Source of the DNA: a virus
Virus record (IMG/VR): IMGVR_UViG_3300009152_000003
Coordinates: 1 to 64,000 of that record
Length of the DNA stretch: 64,000 nucleotides
Reading direction: 5' to 3' (one strand)
Made by a program: the position numbers and the translations under genes. Shown in pieces: positions 3,557 to 49,229 of the stretch (its first letter is position 1; the number at the start of each line of letters is the position of its first letter). The notes below the pieces were generated by a model. That model did no database searches, had not been told where the DNA came from, and was given only the letters and a program-made list of their open reading frames with translations.

Positions 3557-4741
3557 CTAGCCAGGACAGTCGAGGTACAACCCAATCGGGTCCTCGCCGC
3601 CAAGCCAACCCCGGTACGCCTTTTGATGAGCCGCGACCGTGTGCCCCATGAACAACGAAGCATGGGCATCGGTCACCCGGTAGCGCGGCGAATGGAGCCG
3701 GCGGGCGTAAGCATGCCGAAACCCGTAGGACGTTGCGCCGCCGGTCGCCACCAAGCCGCAACGGCGCAGCTGCTGGTTGACCCGGGCGCCGGCGCAGGAA
3801 AGGTCTCCAAGCCCCGGCAGTGATTCCCGCCAGAGCTCTTCCATTCCAAAACGCCTGAGCCATTCAGGGTGAAACGGCGGCGCCTGCCGCGGCCTTGTCG
3901 TGCCGTGGCGGTTGGTTTTCCCCATGCCGATCCAGGCACACCCCTCTCGCTTGATGCAGGGCTCAGCCACCCAGGCTTCCCAGGGCCGCAATCCGTAGAT
4001 CGCCAGCGCCGCTACGACGCGCCGCCAGGATGGACTCAACTTGGACCCCGGCGCCAGAATCGCCTCGATCTCCTGGTCCGAAAAAAATGATTGCGGCCTG
4101 TGCTGCACCGAGCGCCCGACATTTTGCAGGGGGTCCAGCAGCGCAGCATTCCAGTCCGCTCCGCACAGAGCGCAGAGTCGCCTCAAGAAGGCCACGACCC
4201 GCCGCCGCGTCGGAGAGCGGGGGTCGGTCTGCTCGATCGCCTTCAGGAGGGAGTCTTCGCTCAAGGGTCGCTTGGGGTCGAGCCGCCGCAGATGGACCAG
4301 GTAGTGCCGCTCGAAAGTCCCCTCGCCGACTCCCTCGGCCGTCTTGAGACGGTGCCACTTTGCCGCCACCTCATCGAGTCCCAGCCTGGTTTCTTTCGGC
4401 TTACCCTTTTTTACCCTTGAGTCCGTGCAGGCCTCCTTCCAGGGCCCTGTCTCGAAGGCCCCGTCCCGCTCCTGCAGGAAGGCCCGGAGCTCCAGGCCGC
4501 GGTTCACCACGTCCATCGGCGCGCTGTCGAAGTTCAGGTACAGCGGCACTTTCAGGCCACTGAGTTGGACGTAGAGACGCTGGCCGATCGCCTTGAGCCG
4601 GAACCCCTTTCCGAAGATCTCGCCGCTCTTGGCTGCCAGCAGTTGGACGCTCAGATCGACCACCTCTGACCCGCCCTGGGCAGGGTAAGAAGAGGCCGGT
4701 CTTACCCTTTTTTGACCCCTAATGGCCGCAGTTGGCTCCAC
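3557..4741 (-). CDS. int: Tyrosine recombinase (phage integrase)
   Basis: YGLRPWE (R), FRHAYARR (HxxR), MGHT..H...Y catalytic motifs; adjacent to a tRNA 3' fragment; true start may be the GTG near 4663. Confidence 0.92.
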   Translation of the reverse strand: MEPTAAIRGQKRVRPASSYPAQGGSEVVDLSVQLLAAKSGEIFGKGFRLKAIGQRLYVQLSGLKVPLYLNFDSAPMDVVNRGLELRAFLQERDGAFETGPWKEACTDSRVKKGKPKETRLGLDEVAAKWHRLKTAEGVGEGTFERHYLVHLRRLDPKRPLSEDSLLKAIEQTDPRSPTRRRVVAFLRRLCALCGADWNAALLDPLQNVGRSVQHRPQSFFSDQEIEAILAPGSKLSPSWRRVVAALAIYGLRPWEAWVAEPCIKREGCAWIGMGKTNRHGTTRPRQAPPFHPEWLRRFGMEELWRESLPGLGDLSCAGARVNQQLRRCGLVATGGATSYGFRHAYARRLHSPRYRVTDAHASLFMGHTVAAHQKAYRGWLGGEDPIGLYLDCPG

Positions 4742-36059: not shown

Positions 36060-36650
36060 TTCAAGGACCTGAAGCAAAAAAGGGCTCCTATAGGACCTTC
36101 AATTTTTTGTTGCGGCGCGCGACAGACATCAAAACCCACCCCAAGCGAGCAAGATTGCGGGAGGAAAAAAAAAGAGTGCAGTTGCGGCCAAGATGCTGGG
36201 CACGCATGCGTCCATTGCCTATTAATAGCAGGCACCAGCAGCAAGAGCAGGCGCCGTAGCAGCGCGCATGGCGCCTCAGCAGCAGCACACGCCATCCCCA
36301 CGCAGCTCGTGCTATCCACACGCCTCGTAGGCGCATGCACGCGCTACTCACGCGCTCGCTTACGCACACCGCAGCGCTGCAATCGCAGCCTGCGATCTCT
36401 CCTGCAGCTGCAACACACGCGTCTGCAACACACGCAGCGCCTGCAGCGCACACGCACACACACTCGCTACACATCACTTCCTATTCCTTCTACCCTCTTA
36501 CTCATTCTCTACCTATCTCAACGCCTCAAACCCCCTCCAACGCAGTCACTCTCCACTGCTTCCTTAATAGCTCACCTGCACACTCGCTACGCGGGAGCAC
36601 GCTCGCCACACACACTCCACGCACGCTGCGTAGGGGGCAGTAGTGGCATT
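36060..36650. other. Non-coding divergence region with A/T tracts and CA/CG-alternating low-complexity repeats
   Basis: A6, T6 and A9 tracts; tandem CTGCAACACACGC; CACACTCGCTAC twice; pyrimidine-rich stretch; lies between the divergent gene blocks. Confidence 0.6.
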
Positions 36651-36658
36651 GGTGTGCT

Positions 36659-36673
36659 CACTCAGCAGTGCAC
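36659..36673 (+). promoter_or_regulatory. CACTCAGCAGTGCAC element, copy 1
   Basis: Exact 15-mer; outer stem GTGTGCT/AGCATAC. Confidence 0.8.
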
Positions 36674-36750
36674 GTGCCTGCTGTGCAGCATACACGCTCC
36701 AGCAACCACTTGGTTTCGCTTATGCGCAATCAAGGGGGTTCAAATGAGCT

Positions 36751-36765
36751 CACTCAGCAGTGCAC
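36751..36765 (+). promoter_or_regulatory. CACTCAGCAGTGCAC element, copy 2
   Basis: Exact 15-mer; outer stem ATGAGCT/AGCTCAT; next ATG at 36821. Confidence 0.8.
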
Positions 36766-36820
36766 ATGTTTGTTGAGCAGCTCATGTCCTCTCTTGGCCC
36801 AGCGCAAGCCGGCTTCGCTC

Positions 36821-36967
36821 ATGCTCCGCATCATTTCCTTCGCTCAAGACAACCCCAAGACTTACTTGGCCGGATGTCTTGCATTCGGGACCCTCCTCCG
36901 CCTGGCCATGTGCCACGGCAACTTGGATCTCTTCATGGATCCCCTCTATCCGCTCATCCACCGCTAG
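36821..36967 (+). CDS. Small hydrophobic early protein (48 aa)
   Basis: MLRIISFAQDNPK...; lies between element copy 2 and a terminator. Confidence 0.6.
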   Translation: MLRIISFAQDNPKTYLAGCLAFGTLLRLAMCHGNLDLFMDPLYPLIHR

Positions 36968-36987
36968 TGCCACATCTGGCACCCCCG
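36965..36987. repeat. 23-bp exact repeat TAGTGCCACATCTGGCACCCCCG, copy 1
   Basis: Identical to 38144-38166; contains dyad GTGCCA-CATC-TGGCAC. Confidence 0.75.
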
Positions 36988-36991
36988 TCTC

Positions 36992-37027
36992 GCCCCTGGT
37001 CCCGCACACGCGGATCAGGGGCTTTTT
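36992..37027 (+). terminator. Intrinsic terminator
   Basis: GCCCCTGGTCC/GGATCAGGGGC stem + T5. Confidence 0.7.
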
Positions 37028-37036
37028 CAGTGAGCT

Positions 37037-37051
37037 CACTCAGCAGTGCAC
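37037..37051 (+). promoter_or_regulatory. CACTCAGCAGTGCAC element, copy 3
   Basis: Exact 15-mer 10 nt after a terminator; next ATG at 37107. Confidence 0.8.
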
Positions 37052-37106
37052 ATGCCTGTTGAGCGGCTCAGGGACCTCTCGCCCCGGTGAAAGCCGGGTT
37101 CCCTCA

Positions 37107-37676
37107 ATGGCTACCACTCAGACCAAGGCCGCTCTCGCCGAAGCCCTCGAGGCTGCCACCAGCCGCATCAGCGAACTGGAAGCCCTCATCGCTGCCGCCC
37201 AGAGCGAGCAGCAACAGCCAACCGCTGCCGCCCATCTGGATCAGGTCCTCTGGATCCAGCGCAAGCCGCTCGCGGAGCGCACACCTGACGGCAAAGGCAA
37301 CATTGGCTACACCCGCAGCGGAATGCTCACTGTGCGCTTCGCCGCGCAATACGCCTCCCTCGACAAACGGACAGGCACCCGCACCTTCGGCGTCTGGAAG
37401 TTCTTCACTTCCTACGGCGAAGTCGCCCAGCAGGTCATCGACCTGATGCGCACTGAAGACCGCCTCGTCCGAGTCCAGGCCTACGAAGAGCCCTGGTCCA
37501 GCGCTCAAGACCCCAACGCTCGCAACAGCGACTGGGTCGTACGAGGCTTCAACCCTATCGGCCGCGGCGCCGGCACTCCCCCGGAGCTGCCGCCCGTGCC
37601 CGCCAAAGCCGCCCCTGCTGCAGCACCCGCTGCCGCAGCGCCTGCCCAGCCCCAGCTGGCACCAGTCGCCTTCTGA
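37107..37676 (+). CDS. Divergent SSB-like OB-fold protein
   Basis: TVRFAAQ..WKFFTSYGEVAQQV..LVRVQAY..W..WVV resembles the SSB pattern; N-terminal coiled coil; Pro/Ala tail. Confidence 0.55.
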   Translation: MATTQTKAALAEALEAATSRISELEALIAAAQSEQQQPTAAAHLDQVLWIQRKPLAERTPDGKGNIGYTRSGMLTVRFAAQYASLDKRTGTRTFGVWKFFTSYGEVAQQVIDLMRTEDRLVRVQAYEEPWSSAQDPNARNSDWVVRGFNPIGRGAGTPPELPPVPAKAAPAAAPAAAAPAQPQLAPVAF

Positions 37677-37683
37677 GGCACAC

Positions 37684-37724
37684 GCCCCCGGCTCCGCCAT
37701 CTGGCGGGGTTCGGGGGCTTTTTT
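37684..37724 (+). terminator. Intrinsic terminator
   Basis: GCCCCCGGCTCCGCC/GGCGGGGTTCGGGGGC stem + T6. Confidence 0.75.
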
Positions 37725-37732
37725 ATTGGCCC

Positions 37733-37747
37733 CACTCAGCAGTGCAC
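37733..37747 (+). promoter_or_regulatory. CACTCAGCAGTGCAC element, copy 4
   Basis: Exact 15-mer 9 nt after a terminator; next ATG at 37807. Confidence 0.8.
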
Positions 37748-37806
37748 ATGCCTGTTGAGCGGGCGCCTGTCCTCTCTCATCCCGGCGAAAGCCGGGGCGT
37801 TTTGTC

Positions 37807-38127
37807 ATGACCGAATCCCGGCTCTATGACCTCTCCCAGCAACTCCGCCTGCTGGCACGCCGTGACTGCCATCTCTCAGCCCATGGCAGCCTTCTCAACG
37901 GCTCCGTCGACCGCAAGGTCGAGGACGCCCGCGAGGAACTCCTCGTTGCCCTGGAACTCATCCAGGACCGCCAAGCTCTAGACGTCCAGCACCTGGACGC
38001 CATCGACTACTGCCAGGCCCTTGCCTGGCGCAACCGCCATCAGATCCAGGCACTCCGCCGCCAGTCGGAGTTCGAGCAACGCCTGGAAGCGCAAGCTCCA
38101 CGGCCACTCCGCCTCGAGGCCGCCTGA
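37807..38127 (+). CDS. Hypothetical early protein
   Basis: 106 aa, C-ending codon bias. Confidence 0.65.
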   Translation: MTESRLYDLSQQLRLLARRDCHLSAHGSLLNGSVDRKVEDAREELLVALELIQDRQALDVQHLDAIDYCQALAWRNRHQIQALRRQSEFEQRLEAQAPRPLRLEAA

Positions 38128-38143
38128 CCCCCTCATACCGGGG

Positions 38144-38166
38144 TAGTGCCACATCTGGCACCCCCG
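38144..38166. repeat. 23-bp exact repeat, copy 2
   Basis: Identical to 36965-36987. Confidence 0.75.
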
Positions 38167-38247
38167 GTGTGCTTCATTACCGACCGCTCTAGCTGACAGT
38201 CCCTGCTACCCTCCCGCAATTCGCCCGGGCACTGCCCGGCTTACAAC

Positions 38248-38589
38248 ATGACACCCGCTTCCGCGGGGCGCCTCGCCGGCATTGCCTGGCGACACAGCGC
38301 CCCTGTCTTCTTCCTTGCCTGGGCTCTCGCCCGGGCACTCTTCGCCCTCTTCCTCCTGACCGGCGACGCCATTTGGCAGCGCCGTCAGAGCATCTTCCAG
38401 GGCATCCTGCACGCCCTGGTACACGCCTACGTGGCCGCTGAGGCCACCTACCACGCAGGCCGCCGCGTCAGGGCCCGCCTAGGCGCTCATGGCGCCCTCA
38501 GCGGTACCTCCGCTGCCCAGGCTCCCCAAGTCCTGCGCCTGGCGCTCCTGCGCTTCCTGGCGCGCCGCTACGGCTGGAGGCTGGCGTGA
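38248..38589 (+). CDS. Hypothetical membrane protein
   Basis: 113 aa; VFFLAWALARALFALFLL. Confidence 0.55.
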   Translation: MTPASAGRLAGIAWRHSAPVFFLAWALARALFALFLLTGDAIWQRRQSIFQGILHALVHAYVAAEATYHAGRRVRARLGAHGALSGTSAAQAPQVLRLALLRFLARRYGWRLA

Positions 38590-38780
38590 TCACCATCACC
38601 GCCCCCAACGGCCAACTGCTCGCCGACCAGCGCGGGCAGTTCTTTTACTCCCACAAGGGCCAGCTCGTCTCGGTTCCGCCGACCTCCTGTCGCTGGGACC
38701 TGGCCGACATGGCCCGCCTCTGGGGCGACATGTGCGCCGTCACTGGCAACCCATACGTCCTCTCCATCAGCCCTGGCTGA
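38586..38780 (+). CDS. Hypothetical protein
   Basis: 64 aa, GTGA overlap with the upstream stop. Confidence 0.55.
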   Translation: MITITAPNGQLLADQRGQFFYSHKGQLVSVPPTSCRWDLADMARLWGDMCAVTGNPYVLSISPG

Positions 38781-39282
38781 CACCTTCCCGTTGCCCCGTC
38801 TGACGCCTCCTACCCTTGGTGGCGTCATGAGACGGGGACTCGCTCTTGCTTGGCCTGCCCAGGCGAGAGCTTTCATCCTCCCCACCCCCATGGTCAAAAC
38901 CTTCTCCATCTTCATTTCCGGCGTCGTTGGCGTCGGCATGATTGCCGGCGCAATCGCCGACTACCGGGCCCTCCGTCTGGAGGCCCAGGCCGGGATCCCC
39001 GTCCCGGAATGCGCCAACATCAGCCTCCTTAGGCCCCCCTGCCGCTGACCTCTCGACCATCCATTGCAGCCGATCGCGGTCAATCAGCAGGTCGCCCCTG
39101 ACCCAGCTGATCACGCAGTTCGGTAACACCTGCTCCTCTGGCACCGGCGGCTGCCAGCTGTACCAGCTGTGCTTGCACCGGCGACACCTTCGCCAGCGAA
39201 TCCGACCGCCTTCTAGGTCGACCGCTGGACGACTGGTGACGCAACCAGCCAAGCCGTTGCACCGGGAGCACCTCACTGTCAC
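38767..39282 (-). CDS. NrdR-like zinc-ribbon protein (N-terminal ~75 aa credible)
   Basis: CSRC..RIRWRRCRRCKHSWYS; the C-terminal half looks like antisense shadow. Confidence 0.5.
   Translation of the reverse strand: MTVRCSRCNGLAGCVTSRPAVDLEGGRIRWRRCRRCKHSWYSWQPPVPEEQVLPNCVISWVRGDLLIDRDRLQWMVERSAAGGPKEADVGAFRDGDPGLGLQTEGPVVGDCAGNHADANDAGNEDGEGFDHGGGEDESSRLGRPSKSESPSHDATKGRRRQTGQREGVSQG
38890..39048 (+). CDS. Small membrane protein
   Basis: MVKTFSIFISGVVGVGMIAGAIA. Confidence 0.5.
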   Translation: MVKTFSIFISGVVGVGMIAGAIADYRALRLEAQAGIPVPECANISLLRPPCR

Positions 39283-39330
39283 GCTGCCTGACTGCCATAG
39301 CGGTCAGACAGTTTACCCCCCTCTCGCCTC

Positions 39331-39549
39331 ATGATTCTCGAAATCTTTTGCGGCCACGAGGCCTATGGCCCCGCCATGGGCAGCGCCAGATACCTCAGGC
39401 GCCTTGCCAGGGCCTTCCAGCGCGTTCACCCGCACGCTCGCGTTGTCCTCTCCCCAGAGGACGGCTACAGGCCCGCCCAGCTGGCCCTCTTGGCCGCCAT
39501 CGCCGATCAAGGCGAGCGCGACATGCGCGAGCTCATGGAGGCCCCATGA
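39331..39549 (+). CDS. Hypothetical protein
   Basis: 72 aa, pyrimidine-rich leader. Confidence 0.55.
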   Translation: MILEIFCGHEAYGPAMGSARYLRRLARAFQRVHPHARVVLSPEDGYRPAQLALLAAIADQGERDMRELMEAP

Positions 39550-39878
39550 CCACACAATCACTCTCCCTCCGCCTGGCGGACGACCTCGCCGCCAATCCCC
39601 TGACCTGGCCGGGGCTCTACCCCCGCTACGGCGTCACCAACGACGGTCAAGCGCTCTGCCCCGACTGCTGCCGGACGGAGCGCAAGTGGATCGCCACCAC
39701 CACCGGCTCTGACGGCTGGTGCCTCATCGACGTCTCCGTCGACTGGGGCGATAGCGACATCAGCTGCAGCCATTGCAGCAAGCCAATCCTCGAGGCCTGC
39801 CTTGAGGAACCCCAGGTCGGCACCGACGCGCCCACCGTTGAAGAACGCAACTCCCTCACCCTCGCCTACGCCCAATGA
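39546..39878 (+). CDS. Cys-rich hypothetical protein
   Basis: WPGLYP..DGQALCPDC..CSHC; ATGA coupling. Confidence 0.65.
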   Translation: MTTQSLSLRLADDLAANPLTWPGLYPRYGVTNDGQALCPDCCRTERKWIATTTGSDGWCLIDVSVDWGDSDISCSHCSKPILEACLEEPQVGTDAPTVEERNSLTLAYAQ

Positions 39879-40288
39879 ACCCTGCCATCAAGACCCAATG
39901 GGTCGCCGCCCTTCGCTCCGGTGAATACCAGCAAGGCAGAAACTTCCTTCGCACCGACGAGGGCTTCTGCTGCCTAGGGGTCCTCTGTGACCTGGCCGCC
40001 AAGGCCGGCATCGGTGTGTACTGGAGCAAGCCCGCCGCAGCACCCACTCTCGACGGCCGCGTCTACGACGACGTTCAAGCCTGCTGCGACTCAACTGGAA
40101 TCCTGCCTGCGGCCGTCATGTGCTGGGCTGATCTCGACACGGACTCTCCCGAGGTAACCGCTGTCAATGGCCTAAACATTGACGTGACCACCGACGGCGA
40201 TTCCAACGTAATCCCGCTGGCACGCCTCAACGACACGCATCTGTTTGATTTTTCCATCATCGCTGACCTCATTGAGGCTCAATTGTGA
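39875..40288 (+). CDS. Conserved phage hypothetical protein
   Basis: WVAALRSGEYQQG..FCCLGVLCDL..LARLND..FSIIADLIE, a widespread phage family pattern. Confidence 0.75.
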   Translation: MNPAIKTQWVAALRSGEYQQGRNFLRTDEGFCCLGVLCDLAAKAGIGVYWSKPAAAPTLDGRVYDDVQACCDSTGILPAAVMCWADLDTDSPEVTAVNGLNIDVTTDGDSNVIPLARLNDTHLFDFSIIADLIEAQL

Positions 40289-40560
40289 AGCAGATCTCCT
40301 ACACCGAACTTGCGTCTCACTTCCACCCCGAAGTGCACGACAGCCTCAAGCGCGTCGCCTGCCACCCAGGCGCTACGCACCTGGTCTTGTTCCAGAACCA
40401 GGCTCTTGATTCATCTGCCCACGGCCTCTGCTCTGCGTTGGCTGTGGGCCCCGGCTGCACCCGCGCCTCCCTCGAGGAGGCGTATGCCGGCCACCTGAAT
40501 GACCTGCCGTCCCAGCGGCAATATCCCATCGCCCATTGCGAGCTGCCCCATGCCGCATGA
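40285..40560 (+). CDS. Hypothetical protein
   Basis: 91 aa, GTGA coupling. Confidence 0.55.
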   Translation: MKQISYTELASHFHPEVHDSLKRVACHPGATHLVLFQNQALDSSAHGLCSALAVGPGCTRASLEEAYAGHLNDLPSQRQYPIAHCELPHAA

Positions 40561-40855
40561 CCCCCTCTGGTCCGGCTGGTTCGATGGCCGCACGGCCATT
40601 CGTGACCTGCTGGCTGACTGTATCAAAGACTGCTCGGCTCGCGAAAGCGACGTCAGCGAAGCTGTTGACCACTGGGTCAAGAAGCTCCAGCTCGAGGCCC
40701 CACCCTGGCTGCTGCGCGAGCACCTCCGCGGCACCGGGGGCTACGAGCCCTGGCAGCTCTGCGATCACCAGGCGAACCTGCGTCGCCTGCTCTTTTCCTG
40801 GGCCTGCGACTGCCGCGAGAGCGGTCTCAACCTTCCCATCTATCTCGCTCGATGA
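40550..40855 (+). CDS. Hypothetical protein
   Basis: Start MPHDPL; DHQANLRRLLFSWACD. Confidence 0.6.
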   Translation: MPHDPLWSGWFDGRTAIRDLLADCIKDCSARESDVSEAVDHWVKKLQLEAPPWLLREHLRGTGGYEPWQLCDHQANLRRLLFSWACDCRESGLNLPIYLAR

Positions 40856-41454
40856 CGGCCCGCTCTGCGCCTTTCCTCTGCACCAGCATCTTCACCTGCG
40901 GTGTCTGCCTGGCGGATCTCGTCGACCGCAACACCGCGGACCACTCCTTCTACCCCCAGGCCTGGATCCCTGGGCCCCACCCATCCCCTGCGGCGGTTGA
41001 GCTCCACGAGCTCCGCCGCTGGCAGACGCTTGCTAGCACACCATGAACTCCCCACTGCCGCGAGAGCGGCCTCAGCCTCTCACTCTCAAGGTAGAAGCCA
41101 CCGGCGCCACCGACGACGACTTGCTCATCGCTCTCGACGAAGTCAAGCGCCTCATCTCTGAAGGCTTCAGCTCAGGCTTCGGCTCCAACGAGAGCGGCTC
41201 TTTCAGCTTCGAATACAGCGACACCGCCTGGAGACAAACCAATGAATCTTGACTTCGACGCCGACCTCGGCGCCCCCGGGGCTCCGGCGTCCCGGCGCTT
41301 CGTGTTCATCACTCGAACAATCGGCCCCTCTGGCGGCCACGCCCTTGACGCTATTGCCGACGACGGCACTGCCTGGTACGCCGTGCTGCAGCGTGGCGCC
41401 GGCCTCAGCGTCTCGTCCTGGCAGCCGCACCCGCCTCTGCCGCCGATCAACTGA
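40852..41454 (+). CDS. Three coupled small hypothetical genes (40852-41046, 41043-41252, 41242-41454)
   Basis: Overlapping start/stop codons and consistent codon bias. Confidence 0.55.
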
Positions 41455-41668
41455 ACACCGGCTCGGCCACGCCTAATGACCGGGGGACAGCTTCCTCTTG
41501 GATGTCCGCCACCCGGCCAGCGCGGGCGCGCATCAGTTCTCTAACGCGCTCGCCCTCGGCGTTCCAGCCCATCGCAGGCAGCGCAAGGCCTCTCACTAGG
41601 GCCTCTTGCCATAGAGCTGCCTCGATCAACCCAGCCAGATCAATCTGGTCCCCCGCAAACCTCTCCAC
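41447..41668 (-). CDS. Hypothetical protein
   Basis: 73 aa, follows 41670..42161. Confidence 0.45.
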   Translation of the reverse strand: MERFAGDQIDLAGLIEAALWQEALVRGLALPAMGWNAEGERVRELMRARAGRVADIQEEAVPRSLGVAEPVFS

Positions 41669-41669
41669 A

Positions 41670-42161
41670 TCAGGCGAGCGGGCTGTTCTCTGTCCTCTCG
41701 CCTGTCGTCGAGCCCTCCTGCAAGAACCCCATCAACTGCAACAACTGCTGGGCGGGCGCTGTCAACAGCGCACCGCCACCCACGATCGCCGTCGGCAACA
41801 CGCCGCGACGGACGTAATCGTTCGTTGCGATCCCTTCGTTGATCATCTCCATCGTGCCGCGACCTGTCCAACCACCCTGCCCGCGACGCATGTCGGGGGC
41901 GTACTGGCTGGCAATCCTGGCGCGGCCCTTTTGATTGCCCAGGGCGCTCTCGATCCCCGCAACGGCATCAGCCGCCGGAGGAGCGAAGCCCCTGGTAATC
42001 CGCTCCATGATCTGCGAGCGGTACTTCCCTTCGGTATCGCCCTGGATCATCGCGGTGTTCCGCGCAATCCCAGCAGCCCTGTCCCCTGCTTGGCGCTTGG
42101 CTGCCTCCTCGGCAATCCAGGCGTCAAGCCCAGCAAGCTTGCCCTGAATCTGACCCCACAT
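41670..42161 (-). CDS. Late-type hypothetical protein inside the early block
   Basis: Start MWGQIQ with GAGGTG RBS and CTAGAAT -10 at 42184-42190; hydrophobic GVLPTAIVGGGALL. Confidence 0.6.
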   Translation of the reverse strand: MWGQIQGKLAGLDAWIAEEAAKRQAGDRAAGIARNTAMIQGDTEGKYRSQIMERITRGFAPPAADAVAGIESALGNQKGRARIASQYAPDMRRGQGGWTGRGTMEMINEGIATNDYVRRGVLPTAIVGGGALLTAPAQQLLQLMGFLQEGSTTGERTENSPLA

Positions 42162-42207
42162 GGATAGCACCTCGGATCGTTCGATTCTAGGTGGATCTTT
42201 GTGGGTC

Positions 42208-42222
42208 CACTCAGCAGTGCAC
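42208..42222 (+). promoter_or_regulatory. CACTCAGCAGTGCAC element, copy 5
   Basis: Exact 15-mer where + strand genes resume after an antisense island; next ATG at 42265. Confidence 0.8.
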
Positions 42223-42264
42223 ATGCCTGTTGAGCCCCTTTATCTCTCTGTTTGGAACAAGACC

Positions 42265-42666
42265 ATGCCCATCATCGCTTTTGGCCCCTTCGAAATCCGC
42301 CTCAACTCCGGCACCACCGGCGTCAACTGGACCGACACGGAGCTTGCCTTCGTGACCGGTCGTAACGGCGCCGGCTTCGCGACACGAGAAACCGCACTTC
42401 GCGCCGGCTTCAAGTCCGAGCACCTGCTCGAGCTCGCCGGTGAGGACGACACCAACGACACCAAGGTCGTCAACGGTGCCACCTACCACGGCAAGCGCAG
42501 CACTGGCTTCGACGGCAAGGACTACGTCCTCTCTGCTGAGCAAATCGCCGCACGCGCCGAGTACCGCAAAGCCATGCGCGAAAGCCAAAACCAGGCCAAA
42601 CGCGCCGCCGAGTTCGCCGCAGGCAGCGACCCCTCGATCACCGTCGAGGCCGCACCTGCGGGCTGA
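42265..42666 (+). CDS. Hypothetical early protein
   Basis: 133 aa, strong codon bias, followed by a terminator. Confidence 0.7.
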   Translation: MPIIAFGPFEIRLNSGTTGVNWTDTELAFVTGRNGAGFATRETALRAGFKSEHLLELAGEDDTNDTKVVNGATYHGKRSTGFDGKDYVLSAEQIAARAEYRKAMRESQNQAKRAAEFAAGSDPSITVEAAPAG

Positions 42667-42690
42667 TCCCTCAGGCCCTGCCACAATCAC

Positions 42691-42726
42691 AGCCTCGGCG
42701 TGCGTCCTGCATGCCGAGGCTTCTTT
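42691..42726 (+). terminator. Intrinsic terminator
   Basis: AGCCTCGGCGTGC/GCATGCCGAGGCT + TCTTT. Confidence 0.7.
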
Positions 42727-42744
42727 GTGACAACAGTGACCGCC

Positions 42745-42942
42745 ATGGCAAGCTATCGCACCAATGCCGTGCTACACGTCCATCGCCTGCGTGACTGGTC
42801 TGCCATCTTGCTTCGTCAAGCAAGGGCCAGTTTCGACGCCGGCGATGGCAGTCAGACGGCCGAGTCCGTCGCTGCCATCCGCGACCTCCACCGCTCGTTC
42901 CAGCAACGAGCCCAGCAAATCGACCAAACCCTTTCCCTATGA
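42745..42942 (+). CDS. Hypothetical protein
   Basis: 65 aa, ATGA coupling to the next gene. Confidence 0.5.
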   Translation: MASYRTNAVLHVHRLRDWSAILLRQARASFDAGDGSQTAESVAAIRDLHRSFQQRAQQIDQTLSL

Positions 42943-43634
42943 CCATCGCCCCCTCTAAACCCAAAACCCCTTCCCTCTTCCAGATCACCCTGGAAAGCCA
43001 GGAGATCGACGGCGAGCTTTCGATCGCCCTAGCCAAGGCCAGCTCCGAGGACCCCGAGGAGCAAGCCGAAGCCGAGGCTCTGATCACCAGCCTGCTCGAG
43101 CGGGCCAATGACAGCCAGCGCATGCTGCTTCGCAAGGCCAACGGCATCTGCCAGATCCGCGAGATGCTGCTCGGTAAGGCCGAGTTCCTCCGCAAGGGCG
43201 CAGCCGAGCGCATCGCCAAAGCCGAGGCCGAGGAACGCGCCGCCCAGCGCCTGGAGGACTACCTCCTGCGCTGCCTGCAAGCCCTCCACCCCGGACAAAC
43301 GAAGTTCGAACTGCCCGAGTTCACCATTGTTTCGCGTCCAAGCGAAGCCGTCGAAGTCGACACCAGCCTCGACGCTCCAGACATGCCCGAAGAGTTCACC
43401 CGAGTTGAACTCAAGCTCAAGCTTTCAGGCCACGGCAGCACCAGGGCCTGCGACATCGAGCGCCTACTGCGTGGACACCTTGAAGACATGCTCGATGGCT
43501 GCCCTCCCGGCACCTACGAGCTGGCCGAGCCCAAGGCTGCGCCCGACAAGACGGCCATCAAGGCCGCCATCAAGGAGGGCGCCACCGTCCCCGGCGCACA
43601 ACTGGTCAAGCGCCGCTCCTGGTCCATCAAGTGA
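42939..43634 (+). CDS. Siphovirus Gp157-family protein
   Basis: KANGI..LEDYL..PDKTAIKAAIKEGATVPGAQLV..WSIK. Confidence 0.85.
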   Translation: MTIAPSKPKTPSLFQITLESQEIDGELSIALAKASSEDPEEQAEAEALITSLLERANDSQRMLLRKANGICQIREMLLGKAEFLRKGAAERIAKAEAEERAAQRLEDYLLRCLQALHPGQTKFELPEFTIVSRPSEAVEVDTSLDAPDMPEEFTRVELKLKLSGHGSTRACDIERLLRGHLEDMLDGCPPGTYELAEPKAAPDKTAIKAAIKEGATVPGAQLVKRRSWSIK

Positions 43635-43738
43635 CCGTCAAGTTCCCAATCAAGTTCCCATCAGGCGTCTGCCAAGCATCACCAGGCGCCCAGCAAGTAC
43701 CCATCAAGTACTTGCTTTCTCGATACCTGCCAAGTATT
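43625..43738 (+). repeat. Degenerate ~11-bp periodic array (CAAGT core)
   Basis: catCAAGTgac, cgtCAAGTtcc, aatCAAGTtcc, catCAGGCgtc, tgcCAAGCatc, acCAGGCgcc, cagCAAGTacc, catCAAGTact, then tgcCAAGTatt. Confidence 0.6.
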
Positions 43739-43956
43739 CGTTTTCCGGGTACTCGCTTCCCCCGGCCCGACTTCCTGCGCGTGACCACGCCGTCGGGCCG
43801 GTTCCTGGTCACACCCAACAGCGGCAGAGCACGGCTGGCCCTCAACCAGCTGTGCGATCCCTCCCTGCCGCGTCTCGGTGACGCTCTGCTGCTCTCCCCT
43901 GAGCAGGCAGCTGGCGTCACCGCCTACCTCCAGTCCCTCTCCTTCTCTGTAAAGCC

Positions 43957-44586
43957 ATGGCAGTCCATACCATCACCTCGGCCCCCAGGCCCAGCTTCAG
44001 GCACAACGGTTACCACTTTGCCTACTACGACCGCGTTGCCCCCACCGGCAAGCAATGCGTGGTTGCCTTCCCAACCAGTCTCGCTGACACCATCAAGCCT
44101 GGCTTTCAGTTCGACGAAGCCACCAGTGTCCACTGGGACGACGCTCTCAAGGCGTCTGTCCTCCACTTGGACTTCGATGAGCGCGAAAGCCTGGCTGAGC
44201 CTTCGCTCCCTCCTGACCCTGAGTCCGGGTGGGGCGACATTGACTATCCCGCTCCCTCCCCTGCCGAAGTCGAGCTGACTTCCGGCAACAACCACGCAAC
44301 ACCTGCCGCCAATAGCCAGCCAGCCATGCGCGGCCCGGCTCACCGCAAATCGGAAGCTCAGAAGGCTATCGAGCAGGGGGCTCAGCTGCCCGCGGCCTAC
44401 CTCAAGATCAACTTGGAGGTCAGTCGCTCCTTCCTGCTCCAGCTGCGCCTGATTGGCAACGCCGTTGGCGAACACAATCGCGCAATGATTGCTCAGAAGC
44501 TCTGCGCTATTTCGTCCATTCCCTACTACAAACAAATCGGCGTCAACCTCACAGAAGAAGACGTCAACAGCATGACTGCCCTCTGA
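43957..44586 (+). CDS. Hypothetical protein
   Basis: 209 aa, codon bias. Confidence 0.6.
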   Translation: MAVHTITSAPRPSFRHNGYHFAYYDRVAPTGKQCVVAFPTSLADTIKPGFQFDEATSVHWDDALKASVLHLDFDERESLAEPSLPPDPESGWGDIDYPAPSPAEVELTSGNNHATPAANSQPAMRGPAHRKSEAQKAIEQGAQLPAAYLKINLEVSRSFLLQLRLIGNAVGEHNRAMIAQKLCAISSIPYYKQIGVNLTEEDVNSMTAL

Positions 44587-44616
44587 TACCGGCGAATGAG
44601 TGCGTTCTTGTGGGTG

Positions 44617-44631
44617 CACTCAGCAGTGCAC
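44617..44631 (+). promoter_or_regulatory. CACTCAGCAGTGCAC element, copy 6
   Basis: Exact 15-mer; here a perfect dyad GTGCACT-CAGC-AGTGCAC; next ATG at 44655. Confidence 0.8.
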
Positions 44632-44654
44632 ATTCCTTGTTCCTTGTTTTCGCT

Positions 44655-45251
44655 ATGGAAGCTCTCCTTGCTCCGCAAGACACCGCTCTTGCTCCTCTCC
44701 CCTCGTGGGCTGTTCCGGCCACGCCCGAGCGCAACTACACCACCGTCGGCATCTCTGCTGACGGCCTCCTCTACATCTACGGCGACAGCGCCTCATCGCC
44801 AGGTCCCATCCTGCCCAGCGTGCTTGGCGTCGTCGTCGACATCCAAATCAGCCAACACGGCGGTGCCAGCCGCTACGGAGTCCGAGACTACCTGGACCTC
44901 CACCTGGGCACCGCCATCCCTGGTGAGTTCGTCGTGCTGCGCTTGCCCTGTCAGGCAAAGCCGCACCTCGATACCAGCGAGCTACAGACCCCGTGGTCCG
45001 TACGCTCCCTCGTTGGCGCTCTCCTCCTGCTTGACTTGCAGGAGACAGCGATCAAACTGCAAACCAAGCGCGGGAACACCACCACGTTCTTCCGCGTCTT
45101 CCCCCACTCCGCCGAGGGGATCGAGCAACCCGAAGTCCGGGCCGAATCCATCGGACCGGCACAGGGCGACCTCGAGATCGCTGTTAACCGACTGCGCAGC
45201 CAGCTCGGTCTCCCTCCTCAATTCACCGAGCCCTTCGTTGATGTCACCTGA
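44655..45251 (+). CDS. Hypothetical protein
   Basis: 198 aa, start MEALLAP. Confidence 0.6.
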   Translation: MEALLAPQDTALAPLPSWAVPATPERNYTTVGISADGLLYIYGDSASSPGPILPSVLGVVVDIQISQHGGASRYGVRDYLDLHLGTAIPGEFVVLRLPCQAKPHLDTSELQTPWSVRSLVGALLLLDLQETAIKLQTKRGNTTTFFRVFPHSAEGIEQPEVRAESIGPAQGDLEIAVNRLRSQLGLPPQFTEPFVDVT

Positions 45252-45765
45252 CCCATCTGTACCGGACCAGATCTCCCAGGAATCCCTGCAACAGTTCCTG
45301 CTCAACGCCTCATCAGCAGGTGCCAGGGATCTGCCAATCGGAACCAAAGTTCCTCGGCTGCCGCTTAGCGACCCTGACTTTGGGGCCGCCGACTTGGTCG
45401 TCGCCTTGGAACAGCTCCTGGCAGCGGCGGGTGGAGCCAACTCGCTTCACCTCATGCACGCCAGCAGCTTCCTGCTGAGCGTTGTCGTCGCCGCTATGGA
45501 GCGACGCCTCGAAGATCCGGAGATTGCCGAAATCGGCGGGCTGGCCGGACTCGTCTTTCTGGCCACAACTCGAACGCTGATCAGGGGCATCGTCACCTGC
45601 ATCGGTCAGATCGATGACTTCATCGGTCCCCTCACCGTTGTCCACGCCGAGAGCATCGGCGGCGGCCCTGGCAGCCGCAAGGGGCTCGTCAGTGACGGCA
45701 CCCTTTCCGCCCTGGGTCTCGACATCGAGGACTACGACCGCGAGTTCAAGCGGCGCGTCCCCTGA
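45241..45765 (+). CDS. Hypothetical protein
   Basis: 174 aa, start MSPDPS. Confidence 0.55.
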   Translation: MSPDPSVPDQISQESLQQFLLNASSAGARDLPIGTKVPRLPLSDPDFGAADLVVALEQLLAAAGGANSLHLMHASSFLLSVVVAAMERRLEDPEIAEIGGLAGLVFLATTRTLIRGIVTCIGQIDDFIGPLTVVHAESIGGGPGSRKGLVSDGTLSALGLDIEDYDREFKRRVP

Positions 45766-45807
45766 CCTTCCCCACTCGCACCTCTCTCTTCATCCCCTTC
45801 TCACCCC

Positions 45808-46890
45808 ATGTCAAGCGAGTTCACTTCAGGCGTCTTTGCTTTCGGCACCAAAGCCTGGCACAACGAAGGCGATGTCATCGAAGGCACCCTGCCGGCTGAC
45901 GAGATGTTCCGCCGCGCCCAGGCCCTCTTCCCCGTCGAGACGCTCCAGCTCCACGCCGGCGACATTGACAGCCCTGCCCTGCACGACGCCATCGCCCGCG
46001 CTGCCGATCAGTCCTTCAGCTCACCAGAAGAGCGCGGCATCGCCATCCACCAGGCACTTCAGCAGCACCTGGTCTCGCTCAGGGAAAACCGTGTCGGCAT
46101 CTGGCGCCCCGACGAACGCAAGATTCTCGGCACCGCCAGCCCTGGCTACCGCGTCATCCCCAACGTCCGACTCCTCGACTTCGCCCAGGCCATCCGCGAA
46201 GAAACCGACATGGACGCCTGCGTCGTCCTGCGCAACGGCGCCAAGGTCGCCTTCACGGCCAAGATTCGGGGCACCGACCAGCAGGTCGTGCCCGGCGACA
46301 AGGTGTACCGCAACATCGTGGGCTACCTCGGTCATGACGGCTCGACCGCGTTTGGCGGCATGTTCTCAGACATCCGCGTTGTCTGCCGCAACACCCTTGG
46401 CTTTGCGATGAGCGATGCCAACCGCCACGGGCGGCAGTTCACTATCCGCCACACCGACAACGACGTCGCCCAGATCGACAACGTGCTTCAGAACATCGAC
46501 ATCGCCCGCCAGACCTTCGCTGCCGTCCTTGACGACTACCGCAGCATGCAGGCCACGCCGATGGGCCTCGACCTCTACCGCCACTGGCTGGAGCAGGTCT
46601 ACCAAGTCCCCGACGTCAAGCTCGTCGGCGGCGACACTCGCCCGGGCCGCATCGACGACATGCCCCGCAAGTGGGCGCAGCTTGAGCGTGCCTGGAACTA
46701 CGGCCTCGGCCGTGACATCCCCGGTGTTTCCGGCACCGTCTACGCCGGCCTCAACGCCGTCACCGAAGTCGAGACTTCGATGCTGACTGCCGGTGCCGGC
46801 AAGCGCCGCCTGCACTCGACCCTGTTCGGCACCGGTGCTGGCGTCATCCGCCGCGCCAACGAACTGGCGCGTGATCTGGTGACTGCCTGA
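45808..46890 (+). CDS. DUF932-family phage/plasmid protein
   Basis: KAWHNEG, GHDGS, IRVVCRNTL, IRHT, GTVYAGLNAVTE. Confidence 0.88.
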   Translation: MSSEFTSGVFAFGTKAWHNEGDVIEGTLPADEMFRRAQALFPVETLQLHAGDIDSPALHDAIARAADQSFSSPEERGIAIHQALQQHLVSLRENRVGIWRPDERKILGTASPGYRVIPNVRLLDFAQAIREETDMDACVVLRNGAKVAFTAKIRGTDQQVVPGDKVYRNIVGYLGHDGSTAFGGMFSDIRVVCRNTLGFAMSDANRHGRQFTIRHTDNDVAQIDNVLQNIDIARQTFAAVLDDYRSMQATPMGLDLYRHWLEQVYQVPDVKLVGGDTRPGRIDDMPRKWAQLERAWNYGLGRDIPGVSGTVYAGLNAVTEVETSMLTAGAGKRRLHSTLFGTGAGVIRRANELARDLVTA

Positions 46891-46949
46891 TCGATCTTCC
46901 TGCCCCTGCTGTTTGCGGGGGCTTCCTCTCTTTCCTCTCACCTCACTCC

Positions 46950-48296
46950 ATGGCCAAATTCCAACTGACCATCAGCTCCGACTACGTCAGCGACTGGAGC
47001 GCCTACGAAGGCGTCCGTGAATCCATCCAGAACGCCCTGGATGGCAAGGATGCCGGCCATCCCATGCACATCCGTCATAACGGTGACACCCTCAACATCG
47101 CCAACTTCGGCGTGCGCCTCGACCGCTCGGTCTGGCTGATGGGCAGCACATCCAAAGCTGAGACCGACGCCCGCGGCCACTTCGGCGAAGGGCTCAAACT
47201 CGGCGCCCTGGCTCTGGTCCGTGCCGGCCGCAAGCTCCGCATCGTCAACGATGACGAGGACTGGCTCTGCACCCTTGAGGACTCCAAGGCCTTCCCGGGC
47301 CAGCAGGTCCTGACTGTCACCACCCGCAAGCGCCCCACCCCGCTGGGTGCCTTCTCGGTTCAGGTCCTCTGTTCCGAGGAGGAATGGAGCGAGTGGCAGG
47401 ACTCCTTCATTGACCTCAAGCCCAAGGCTCTGAAGTCGATCCCCGCCGGCGGCGTCCAGATCCTCACCGATCCCGTCGAGCGTGGCCGCTGCTATGTCAA
47501 AGGCATCTTTGTCGAATACAAGCCGGATCTTTACGCTGGCTACAACTTCAACCGCGACGTTCGCACCGACCGCGATCGCCGGGTGATGAACAGCTTCGAC
47601 TTCGACTACCACGCCGGCAACGCCTGGATCGGCGCCCTCACCGACGGAGAGATCACTCCCACCGACATGCTGGCCATGCTGCAATCAGCAGCGCCAGATG
47701 CTAAGGCAACCGGCAACCGCTATTGCCCCGCTTCTGGTATCGAAGCCGTCGGCACTGCCTGGACTTCCATCCATGGCGCCTCTGCTATGCCTGTTCTTGA
47801 TCAAGCCGGCGCCATCGAAGCTGGTCACTATGGCCGGATCGGCATCATCGCCAGCCCTGCGACCTGCACCTTCCTCGATGACCACCCGACATTGAGCCTC
47901 AAGTCCCTGCGGGTGGCGAAGCGCAACGACGTCACGGCCACCTACGGCCTGGGCGATCTCACCTATTCCGAGCGTTTCATCTACCAGTCCGCCATCGAAG
48001 CCATCACCCCGACGCTTAACTCCATGGGCATCACGCCCATCGCGCCTCGTCTCGGCCTCGTCGACTTTCAGTGTGACGACGTCCTTGGCCTGCACCGCTT
48101 CAACCGAGAAGAATCCGTGCACCAGATCCTGGTGGCACGGCGCACCCTCAAGTCCCTGCCCTCCTTCCTGCAGGTGCTCGTCCACGAGATTGCTCACGAC
48201 TTCGGCGGCGACGGCGAAGTCAGTCACGAGCGCGCCGAAGGCGAGATCTTCTCCAAGGTCATCAGCCGACTGCTCGATGCCGCCCTGGTCGCATGA
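46950..48296 (+). CDS. GHKL-type ATPase fused to a C-terminal HExxH domain
   Basis: GVRESIQNALD, GHFGEGLKLG; LVHEIAHD..H. Confidence 0.75.
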   Translation: MAKFQLTISSDYVSDWSAYEGVRESIQNALDGKDAGHPMHIRHNGDTLNIANFGVRLDRSVWLMGSTSKAETDARGHFGEGLKLGALALVRAGRKLRIVNDDEDWLCTLEDSKAFPGQQVLTVTTRKRPTPLGAFSVQVLCSEEEWSEWQDSFIDLKPKALKSIPAGGVQILTDPVERGRCYVKGIFVEYKPDLYAGYNFNRDVRTDRDRRVMNSFDFDYHAGNAWIGALTDGEITPTDMLAMLQSAAPDAKATGNRYCPASGIEAVGTAWTSIHGASAMPVLDQAGAIEAGHYGRIGIIASPATCTFLDDHPTLSLKSLRVAKRNDVTATYGLGDLTYSERFIYQSAIEAITPTLNSMGITPIAPRLGLVDFQCDDVLGLHRFNREESVHQILVARRTLKSLPSFLQVLVHEIAHDFGGDGEVSHERAEGEIFSKVISRLLDAALVA

Positions 48297-48592
48297 CCGA
48301 CGGCGCCATGCGACAAGTCGGGACGCCCTGTCCCGACTGCGGCTCGATCGAGCGCGGTGTCATCGAGTCGCGGCCCCGCAGTGGCGGCTCGATCTACCGC
48401 CGCTGCTTTTGCCGCCGGTGCGGTACTCGCTACACCACTCGGGAACAACTGGTCGGCGAGGCAGCCACCAAGACGCCCGACGACAGCCGCGCCGAACGGC
48501 TCAGACGCGCGGCAATGATCGATCAGATCGATCGCATCGAGCGCAGCCTTGCCGTCCTCAGGAAGAACGTGCCTCCTGTCAATTTGACCTGA
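48293..48592 (+). CDS. NrdR-like zinc-ribbon protein
   Basis: CPDCGS..VIESRP..YRRCFCRRCGTRYTTRE. Confidence 0.75.
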   Translation: MTDGAMRQVGTPCPDCGSIERGVIESRPRSGGSIYRRCFCRRCGTRYTTREQLVGEAATKTPDDSRAERLRRAAMIDQIDRIERSLAVLRKNVPPVNLT

Positions 48593-48604
48593 TCTTTGTA
48601 GCCC

Positions 48605-48619
48605 CACTCAGCAGTGCAC
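48605..48619 (+). promoter_or_regulatory. CACTCAGCAGTGCAC element, copy 7
   Basis: Exact 15-mer; outer stem GTAGCCCCA/TGGGGTTGC; extended apical stem GCACAG/CTGTGT. Confidence 0.8.
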
Positions 48620-48677
48620 AGATCTGTGTTGCTGGCTGGGGTTGCTTGTCCTCTTTGTTTCCTAGCTCCCTCCTTCC

Positions 48678-49229
48678 ACGACCGAAACCAACGCCATCCA
48701 GTATTTCGACATTGCCAAACAGATTCAGCAACGCTACGAAAACCTGAGTTCCGAAAAAGACCAATGTGTCTTGCAGTTGCGGGCAATCTTTGCTTTCCTA
48801 CGCACCAAGTACCCCGACCTGCGGCGCATCGAAATCGTCTACGACGGCTGCGGTGATAGCGGCCAGGTCGAATCGATTCACTTTAGCTCGGACTGCGATG
48901 TTTGGACGCACTCGACCAACTTAAAAATCGACGACTCGGAGGTTCTTCCCAACGAAATCGCCTGTGGCCACACAGCTCGCAAAGGGCACTGGTGCAACGA
49001 GCGCCGCGAGTGGGTTCAAGACGAAGAGCTTCGCAATGAAAACATTGCAGACGCTCTAGACCGCATTGGTTGGGACATCGCCTATGGCGAAAACCCTGGC
49101 TTTGAGGTCAACGAAGGCGGTTACGGCACCGTCTCTGTCTCCACTGACGGCGACTCCGATGAGATCCGGGTCAACCTTGAGCACAGCGAACGCTACGAGT
49201 CGACAACCGATACCTCTTACACCTATTGA
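48678..49229 (+). CDS. DUF6878-like protein (probable ACG start; first canonical start is TTG 48771)
   Basis: IEIVYDGCGDSGQVE..GFEVNEGGYG; the frame is open upstream to ACG 48678. Confidence 0.65.
   Translation, partial: TTETNAIQYFDIAKQIQQRYENLSSEKDQCVLQLRAIFAFLRTKYPDLRRIEIVYDGCGDSGQVESIHFSSDCDVWTHSTNLKIDDSEVLPNEIACGHTARKGHWCNERREWVQDEELRNENIADALDRIGWDIAYGENPGFEVNEGGYGTVSVSTDGDSDEIRVNLEHSERYESTTDTSYTY

Follow-up and report, generated by a model that had tools for sequence, protein, structure and literature searches.

We analysed a 64,000-bp stretch of viral DNA (the window: positions 1-64,000 of the IMG/VR record IMGVR_UViG_3300009152_000003, whose full length is 83,980 bp with a 123-bp terminal repeat), and in particular a 15-nucleotide (nt) intergenic motif, CACTCAGCAGTGCAC, that recurs in its early gene block. 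The minus strand of bases 1-35957 carries structural genes (large terminase, portal-like virion protein, tail proteins). A plus-strand block starting at about 36.7 kb encodes Gp157, DUF932, an exonuclease, SSB-like proteins, a VapE primase/helicase, ThyX and a deoxynucleoside monophosphate (dNMP) kinase. The GC skew of this block is about -0.19, its coding strand being C-rich and G-poor. The closest cultured phage is Synechococcus phage S-EIVl, with amino-acid identities of 51% for the terminase and 43% for the portal-like protein. Neither the early block nor the motif cassette has a DNA match among cultured phages.

Seven exact copies of the motif are present in the 83,980-bp genome, all on the plus strand and all intergenic, and they are restricted to 36.6-48.6 kb, that is, to the first 12 kb of the early block (Table 1). 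A scan of the whole record on both strands, with up to one mismatch allowed, gave no further copy, none on the minus strand and none in the late block. Among the 10-14-mers of the genome the motif is the most repeated. With up to three mismatches the window contains nine matches, compared to a mean of 2.9 in 100 dinucleotide-preserving shuffles, none of which reached nine. All seven copies fall outside the open reading frames (ORFs) supported by third-position GC, and each is upstream of a plus-strand gene. Their orientation relative to the downstream gene is constant, the start codon lying 19-60 nt further on in the window clade and 56, 56, 60, 43 and 24 nt downstream of copies 2-6.

The copies stand at points where transcription has to start or restart. 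The U-runs of the terminators before copies 3 and 4 stop 8-9 nt short of the 15-mer. Copy 5 is situated in a 103-bp gap between two divergent genes. Copies 6 and 7 have no terminator upstream. Most of this had been noted in a preliminary description of the same DNA. The positions, the strand, the intergenic placement and the empty late block all hold, and the motif is not equally frequent inside genes or on both strands. Placement at the start of the block and at copy 5 is as described; the gap after the terminators was given there as 9-10 nt. Of the start distances, those for copies 2-6 are correct; the start assigned 59 nt after copy 7 is an ACG, with ATG in relatives.

Table 1. Motif copies and associated features of the early block (positions in the window)
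Feature	Position	Strand	Remarks
Motif copy 1	36659..36673	+	hairpin ~36652-36693; first of the tandem pair heading the early block; next base G, not A
Motif copy 2	36751..36765	+	hairpin ~36744-36785; next gene from 36821 (48 amino acids, aa)
Intrinsic terminator 5' of copy 3	36992..37027	+	-25.4 kcal/mol, z -5.0, U5 tail
Motif copy 3	37037..37051	+	hairpin ~37031-37070, -24.4 kcal/mol; then gene 37107-37676
Leader hairpin similar to that after copy 4	37082-37098	+	after copy 3
Intrinsic terminator 5' of copy 4	37684..37724	+	-32.3 kcal/mol, z -5.0, U6 tail
Motif copy 4	37733..37747	+	hairpin ~37728-37767; then gene 37807-38127
Second leader hairpin, GAAA loop	37780..37797	+	just 5' of the start codon of the gene after copy 4
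Gene (163 aa) divergent from copy 5	41670..42161	-	antisense island together with 41447-41668
Motif copy 5	42208..42222	+	hairpin ~42203-42238; gene start 42265 or in-frame ATG 42223
Motif copy 6, short-leader type	44617..44631	+	small hairpin 44614-44631 only; ATG 44655
99-aa gene	48293..48592	+	directly 5' of copy 7; NrdR-like zinc ribbon PF22811, 32.3 bits, cutoff 27.2
Motif copy 7	48605..48619	+	variant hairpin ~48598-48645; ORF at 48678 with ACG, relatives ATG

Related IMG/VR contigs too contain the exact 15-mer more than once and on a single strand only, and a core, TCAGCAGTGCAC followed by a purine, occurs in 2-8 same-strand copies in each of five related IMG/VR phages. In the 88-kb genome G001 (eight matches at up to two mismatches, one of them doubtful) and the 36-kb fragment G003 (seven such matches), TCAGCAGTGCAC, the last 12 nt of the 15-mer, is fixed and the first three bases vary. 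Where the coding DNA of these two phages can be aligned with the window, identity is 66-76%; for many genes there is no alignment at all. Every copy of the G000 clade has a purine directly 3' of the core. The consensus built from 22-34 aligned copies consists of a T-rich tract, an invariant TG whose bases precede the core by 9 and 8 nt, a spacer of seven variable bases, then the core itself and the purine; three or four variable bases and then CTG follow. The T-rich tract and the TG are kept even where the terminator is absent.

No core variants were observed in 40 kb examined of each of G006 and G008-G010, and the motif is absent from S-EIVl. A search of 185,579 species genomes for the extended motif TG-N4-15-mer-A gave six single matches, five of which look like chance. 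Since the extended motif is thus absent from these genomes, apart from one phage-like contig, it does not belong to a class of host promoters. The sixth match is in a 38-kb contig (JBIIIP010000176.1) of a lake Pirellulales metagenome-assembled genome, where the flanks of the copy are identical to those in G001. It is probably a G001-like phage contig wrongly binned with a planctomycete, and was not taken as a host assignment. In IMG/VR scans with TG-N7-core and with the word of the more distant relative described below, chance matches dominate among the matches listed. A literature search for the core gave nothing but unrelated primer strings, and the motif is not described in papers citing S-EIV1.

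The more distant relative G007 (78 kb; portal protein 60% identical) contains TCAACAGTGCAA in eight copies. These form eight sites TCAACAGTGCA(A/G), all on one strand within 2.3 kb and preceded by the TG described above. Four units in a row have only one start codon that opens an ORF, an ATG which overlaps or abuts the last base of the motif. The ORFs are 43-60 aa long, and 55-63 nt separate their ends from the next core; in three of the four units this gap is occupied by a terminator. Their pooled GC content by codon position is 0.60/0.44/0.69, the pattern of coding DNA. Given this position of the ATG, the RNA start in G007 cannot lie 3' of the motif. A start further upstream would leave a 5' hairpin flush with the AUG, and a start at the purine ending the motif would give a leaderless mRNA. 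The latter is the simplest reading of these units.

No host-type promoter was recognised in the early block. A scan of the plus strand between 35.5 and 50 kb with the sigma70 consensus gave no site. The hexamer TAnnnT is absent from positions -27 to +83 around 30 of 32 copies, and is near none of the copies in the window, in line with the earlier remark that the motif lacks a sigma70 -10 box. Its frequency on the plus strand is 0.4 per kb in 36.66-49 kb versus 3.1 in the late block, being thus about eight times rarer; it is 1.2 per kb on the minus strand of the early region and in later plus-strand blocks. No second promoter-like motif was found upstream of the later plus-strand genes.

Several known signals were considered and rejected. 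The copies lack the TAnnnT -10 hexamer that a sigma70-type promoter has 6-8 nt 5' of the start, usually together with a TTGACA-like -35 hexamer. When GTGCAC-N5-TGTTG is read by eye as a sigma54 site, the GG and GC dinucleotides are missing; cyanobacteria are not known to have sigma54. There is some likeness to the NrdR box and to the controlling inverted repeat of chaperone expression (CIRCE), and the palindromic part concerned (CAC...) is not kept in relatives.

Most copies can fold into a hairpin in which (C)TCAGCAG pairs with CTGYTGA(G) around a loop of TGCACA plus 3-4 nt, and the variable flanks form an outer stem. Copies 1-5 and 7 share this hairpin, and copy 6 forms GTGCACT-CAGC-AGTGCAC alone. 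Bases 1-3 of the 15-mer pair when able (CTC/GAG, CGC/GCG, CAC/GTG). In 20 copies, 80% of the cells are paired, versus 33-45% with the partners slid. The covariation score is 0.178, compared to 0.129 +/- 0.012 in shuffles (none of 500 reached it) and 0.055-0.091 in slid controls, and cognate flanks out-pair non-cognate ones (p = 1.7e-4). The hairpin is genuine, with covariation at the variable positions of its stem. In copy 6 and its orthologues the leader is short and the large hairpin is missing, and the core is kept; here the upstream flank pairs with AGTGCAC, and the G001 orthologue carries the compensatory change GTC...GAC for GTG...CAC. The copy-6-type hairpin is present in all eight copies of G007.

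Thus two earlier statements, that six of the seven copies share the hairpin and that the outer stems differ in sequence yet still pair, are borne out. A third, that wobble pairs place the fold on the RNA or the non-template strand, is not. The plus-strand fold has 38 G.T pairs versus 32 A.C positions (G.U on the minus strand) for the minus-strand fold. It is favoured by 1.7 kcal/mol with RNA parameters (p = 0.05) and by 0.4 kcal/mol with DNA parameters (not significant), and the claim that the fold is confined to the plus strand is a weak one.

Initiation is needed after the strong terminators and in the divergent gap, and the motif is the only conserved sequence there. Hence we lean, with some caution, towards the interpretation that it forms the core of a promoter specific to this clade, which stands at the head of separate early transcription units and ends at the transcription start. 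The recognised DNA would comprise the T-rich tract with the invariant TG (at about -20), then TCA(G/A)CAGTGCA, and then a purine at which transcription would start, so that the core would occupy about -11 to -1. The window-clade leaders would then be 19-60 nt long, and the mRNAs of G007 leaderless. As there is no -10 box, the reader is not the host primary sigma factor; it would be a component supplied by the phage, whether a sigma-like factor, a polymerase that escaped recognition or an adaptor acting on the host enzyme. The inverted repeat would probably act in DNA, opening or presenting the promoter, as does the hairpin of the early promoters of phage N4. The start, the role of the hairpin in DNA and the phage factor are inferred. 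The preliminary description had left a choice between a promoter or operator combined with a structured leader and an RNA processing or antitermination signal. The promoter option has gained from the invariance of the core across diverged relatives, the strong upstream terminators, the lack of -10 boxes and the gene starts of G007. The structured leader has not: with a transcription start where the motif ends, the RNA would lack the 5' arm, and the term would not fit the motif hairpin.

Several observations weigh against the promoter interpretation. No RNA polymerase or sigma factor was detected among about 60 proteins scanned with Pfam or PHROGs, and none of the four ORFs of at least 600 aa matches an RNA polymerase family. 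A contiguous invariant block of 12 nt is atypical of sigma-dependent promoters. The position of the hairpin relative to the presumed start varies: in most copies the start falls in the loop, and in copy 6 and G007 the hairpin is wholly upstream. Finally, changes compatible with G.U pairing on the sense strand suit an RNA fold at least equally well, as in TCAACAG to TCAGCAG against CTGTTGA, or GTACT versus GCACT in G007.

As to the factor itself, the four large ORFs encode the 864-aa VapE primase/helicase, an 814-aa tail protein, a 737-aa virion structural protein (the last two assigned by PHROGs only) and an 1115-aa protein; none was recognised as a T7-like RNA polymerase, which would have about 700 aa or more. 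The 1115-aa protein, the sole large virion-side protein left unassigned, adjoins the early block and belongs to a small family of 1085-1236-aa proteins. It has no match in Pfam or PHROGs, and the ESM Atlas gave nothing. Its model is mostly disordered (predicted local distance difference test score, pLDDT, 48), with all fold matches at Z < 6 and no polymerase fold. A search for related loci with this family retrieved one locus, already among those known. The best of these matches include several region-2 helical bundles of extracytoplasmic function (ECF) sigma factors, at residues 946-1014, which is within chance for helical bundles. The polymerase motifs DxDxD and Rx3Kx7YG are present in the protein, with residues that are not conserved in the family. 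A 448-aa protein resembles MPN635_N/GHKL-type ATP-binding proteins and not a polymerase. The only nucleic-acid-binding-type domain found in the early block is the zinc ribbon of the 99-aa protein preceding copy 7. No repressor, integrase or transposase family was detected in the Pfam and PHROGs scans.

The main alternative, to which we give distinctly less credence, is that transcription includes the motif hairpin, which would then work at the RNA level, in a 5' leader or between cistrons. The invariant 5' arm and the UGCACA loop would be bound by a protein of the phage or the host, leading to antitermination at the numerous terminators, to processing that stabilises each of the early mRNAs or to control of translation. 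The covariation of the stem would suit such an element, as would the slightly stabler plus-strand fold with RNA parameters and an inner-stem G.U pair conserved in 14 of 20 copies (A-U in the core variant of G007). However, the 5' arm is invariant and the 3' arm is free to vary, which implies recognition of sequence and not of structure alone, and copy 6 and its orthologues keep the core without the large hairpin. In its favour, copies 6 and 7, which have no upstream terminator, are probably read through from the preceding gene. On the other hand, terminators of -25 to -32 kcal/mol are immediately 5' of copies 3 and 4, and a promoter would still be required, with none recognisable before copy 1 or behind the terminators. 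Also in its favour, copies 2-4 are followed by a further hairpin, with a GNRA loop, and in S-EIVl the early leaders contain two hairpins, 3' of -10-like boxes, in which the loop is TGCAAAC and the stems covary fully. But in G007 the AUG would abut a 5' hairpin and leave the ribosome no room to load. A search of Rfam, proposed in the preliminary description as a check for a known family, gave no match in the 64-kb window at the gathering thresholds; relaxed to E up to 5, it gave a single match in 36-49.5 kb, a chance one to a microRNA on the minus strand.

It is unlikely that the motif is instead an asymmetric operator by which a phage repressor or regulator silences or times the early units, with initiation at weak promoters that escape recognition. 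The length, invariance and asymmetry of the site would fit this, as would its many copies, which lie in short intergenic gaps and all face the same way with respect to transcription, and the block does encode a small zinc-ribbon protein. However, the copies are found within 12 kb and not genome-wide, the scans gave no repressor or integrase family, and a promoter to be regulated was not found. Moreover, immunity specificities are usually not common to phages that differ greatly elsewhere, whereas this core is. We consider it very improbable that the copies are ends or scars of small mobile gene cassettes, or signals for single-strand initiation or recombination, with no direct role in transcription. 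Similar units of about 150 nt (terminator, motif, leader) do separate small ORFs whose function is unknown, and the GTTGAGC of the 3' arm happens to match the integron R' pattern GTTRRRY. But in integron attC sites the conserved box forms the outer stem, whereas here GTTGAGC is the inner stem beside the loop and it is the outer stem that varies; no integrase or transposase was found. The tightly constrained distance to the start codon, and a T-rich/TG context that does not depend on the terminator, also speak against cassettes.

What is new in the promoter interpretation is the sequence, the architecture and the lack of a recognisable reader; the kind, a phage-specific promoter possibly assisted by a hairpin, is already known. 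In the early promoters of phage N4, which are read by the virion RNA polymerase (a giant T7-like enzyme packaged in the virion), a hairpin is centred at -11 and mixes conserved positions with variable, covarying ones (PMC4496689). There too, a few same-strand copies head the early region, a conserved sequence is combined with inverted repeats, and the stems contain, as observed here, both conserved bases and variable ones that need only to pair. In copy 6 and G007 the hairpin centre is about 10 nt 5' of the presumed start, with loops of 4-8 nt. However, the Pfam and PHROGs scans found no homologue of the virion polymerase. The N4 stem has 5-7 bp, on the template strand, and a 3-nt loop, whereas the stems here have either 13-18 bp with an internal loop or 6-7 bp, the loops have 4-10 nt, and most copies are centred on the presumed start and not upstream of it. 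Promoters of T7-like single-subunit RNA polymerases have an invariant sequence of about 20 bp that reaches to the start. They are similar in sequence pattern, with many co-oriented copies, often after terminators; the present motif would likewise abut the start, to judge by the gene starts of G007. They differ in that no gene for a polymerase, of the PF00940 type or other, was recognised here, the sequence is unrelated and the motif has a covarying hairpin.

The late promoters of T4 consist of a -10 element only and are read by the phage sigma factor gp55. The present motif would likewise be a short invariant element directly 5' of the start, without a -35 box, used by the host polymerase with a phage factor. 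However, the genes here are early, the element has 11-12 nt versus 8, and no gp55-like protein was found. The PeSL (promoter-early plus stem-loop) cassettes of T4-type phages contain ordinary sigma70 promoters (PMC2839356). Like the units described here, they are repeated between small early ORFs and pair a stem-loop or terminator with a promoter; the present motif, however, has neither a -10 nor a -35 element. Stoperators of cluster A mycobacteriophages, which in these temperate phages have a cognate immunity repressor (gp71 in L5), are asymmetric sites of 13-15 bp in many intergenic copies, with one orientation relative to transcription. In these respects they are similar, but the motif is confined to one 12-kb block and not spread over the genome, no repressor was found, and a hairpin is present. 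The RNase III sites of T7, nut of lambda and put of HK022 are within read-through transcripts, 5' of the terminators that are overcome. They too have internal loops in their hairpins, which are located in front of early genes or between them, whereas here strong terminators are immediately 5' and there are seven or more copies. An antitermination element of the nut or put type is 3' of a promoter and has either a short boxB-type stem with a GNRA-like pentaloop or a put double hairpin. Identity with nut or put was rejected: the loop has 9-10 nt, the site is 8-9 nt after terminators, and the sigma70 scan gave no promoter upstream.

Little is known of how cyanophages other than the T4-like and T7-like ones gain control of transcription, and the S-EIVl lineage is abundant. 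Here an early region has no recognisable host-type promoters and carries one invariant word exactly where initiation must occur. It is possible, although we put it forward tentatively and with more doubt than the promoter itself, that in the widespread S-EIVl-like lineage of freshwater cyanophages early genes are started by undescribed machinery at a 12-nt word in an extrudable DNA hairpin. That machinery could be a sigma-like factor, virion-delivered or made very early, or a polymerase whose similarity to known ones escapes detection, and some members could have leaderless mRNAs. The 12-mer, as double-stranded DNA, as either single strand or as the hairpin, is a precise bait for the missing factor. 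A sigma-like protein or polymerase of a new kind would mean a further transcription system, with an orthogonal promoter for use in cyanobacteria; should the element act in RNA, it would represent a new family of phage leader RNAs.

Directly 3' of copy 5, an ATG at 42223 shares its reading frame with the start annotated at 42265. The segment 42223-42264 is stop-free in this phage and in two relatives, with a length difference of exactly one codon, and translation may begin right where the motif ends. After copy 7, positions 48678-48680 read ACG where three relatives have ATG, and the next canonical in-frame start is the TTG at 48771. The ACG could be a non-AUG start, a recent loss of the start codon or a sequencing error.

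The phage encodes NblA (PF04485, 30.6 bits) and is found in freshwater and lake samples, and thus its host is likely a phycobilisome-bearing cyanobacterium. Among 600 IMG/VR stretches listed as pattern matches, 577 encode the portal-like protein of the S-EIVl lineage. The ORF at 3557-4741 has no Pfam match at E up to 0.1 and thus lends no support to a temperate lifestyle. The divergent non-coding gap at 36170-36566 (about 400 nt) is G-poor and rich in CAGCAG and CACGC, and cannot be aligned even with close relatives that are 82-90% identical in the adjoining genes. Within the divergent gap, the hairpin at 36060-36125 fails to reach significance (z -0.6). Contigs of the metatranscriptome run X3, which cannot show starts, strand or RNA origin, cover both early and late genes; one of them (41277-43002) spans copy 5, and none covers 36134-36700.

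S-EIVl (KJ410740) has a motif of its own, of about 25 nt, GTCCYAAGCATGACAYTAAACTGCT, located 25-30 nt 5' of five minus-strand genes. These genes end at 42957, 38756, 33554, 30466 and 29121 and include neighbours of the DNA polymerase and SSB genes. The motif looks like a separate class of phage-specific promoter. On the minus strand of the same genome, at about 43460 and at 43754, there are two early leaders in which CTGATCCGTCAAAGCGGGT is followed by a 7-bp stem, with arms that covary fully, and a TGCAAAC loop. This leader hairpin may be homologous to the motif hairpin.

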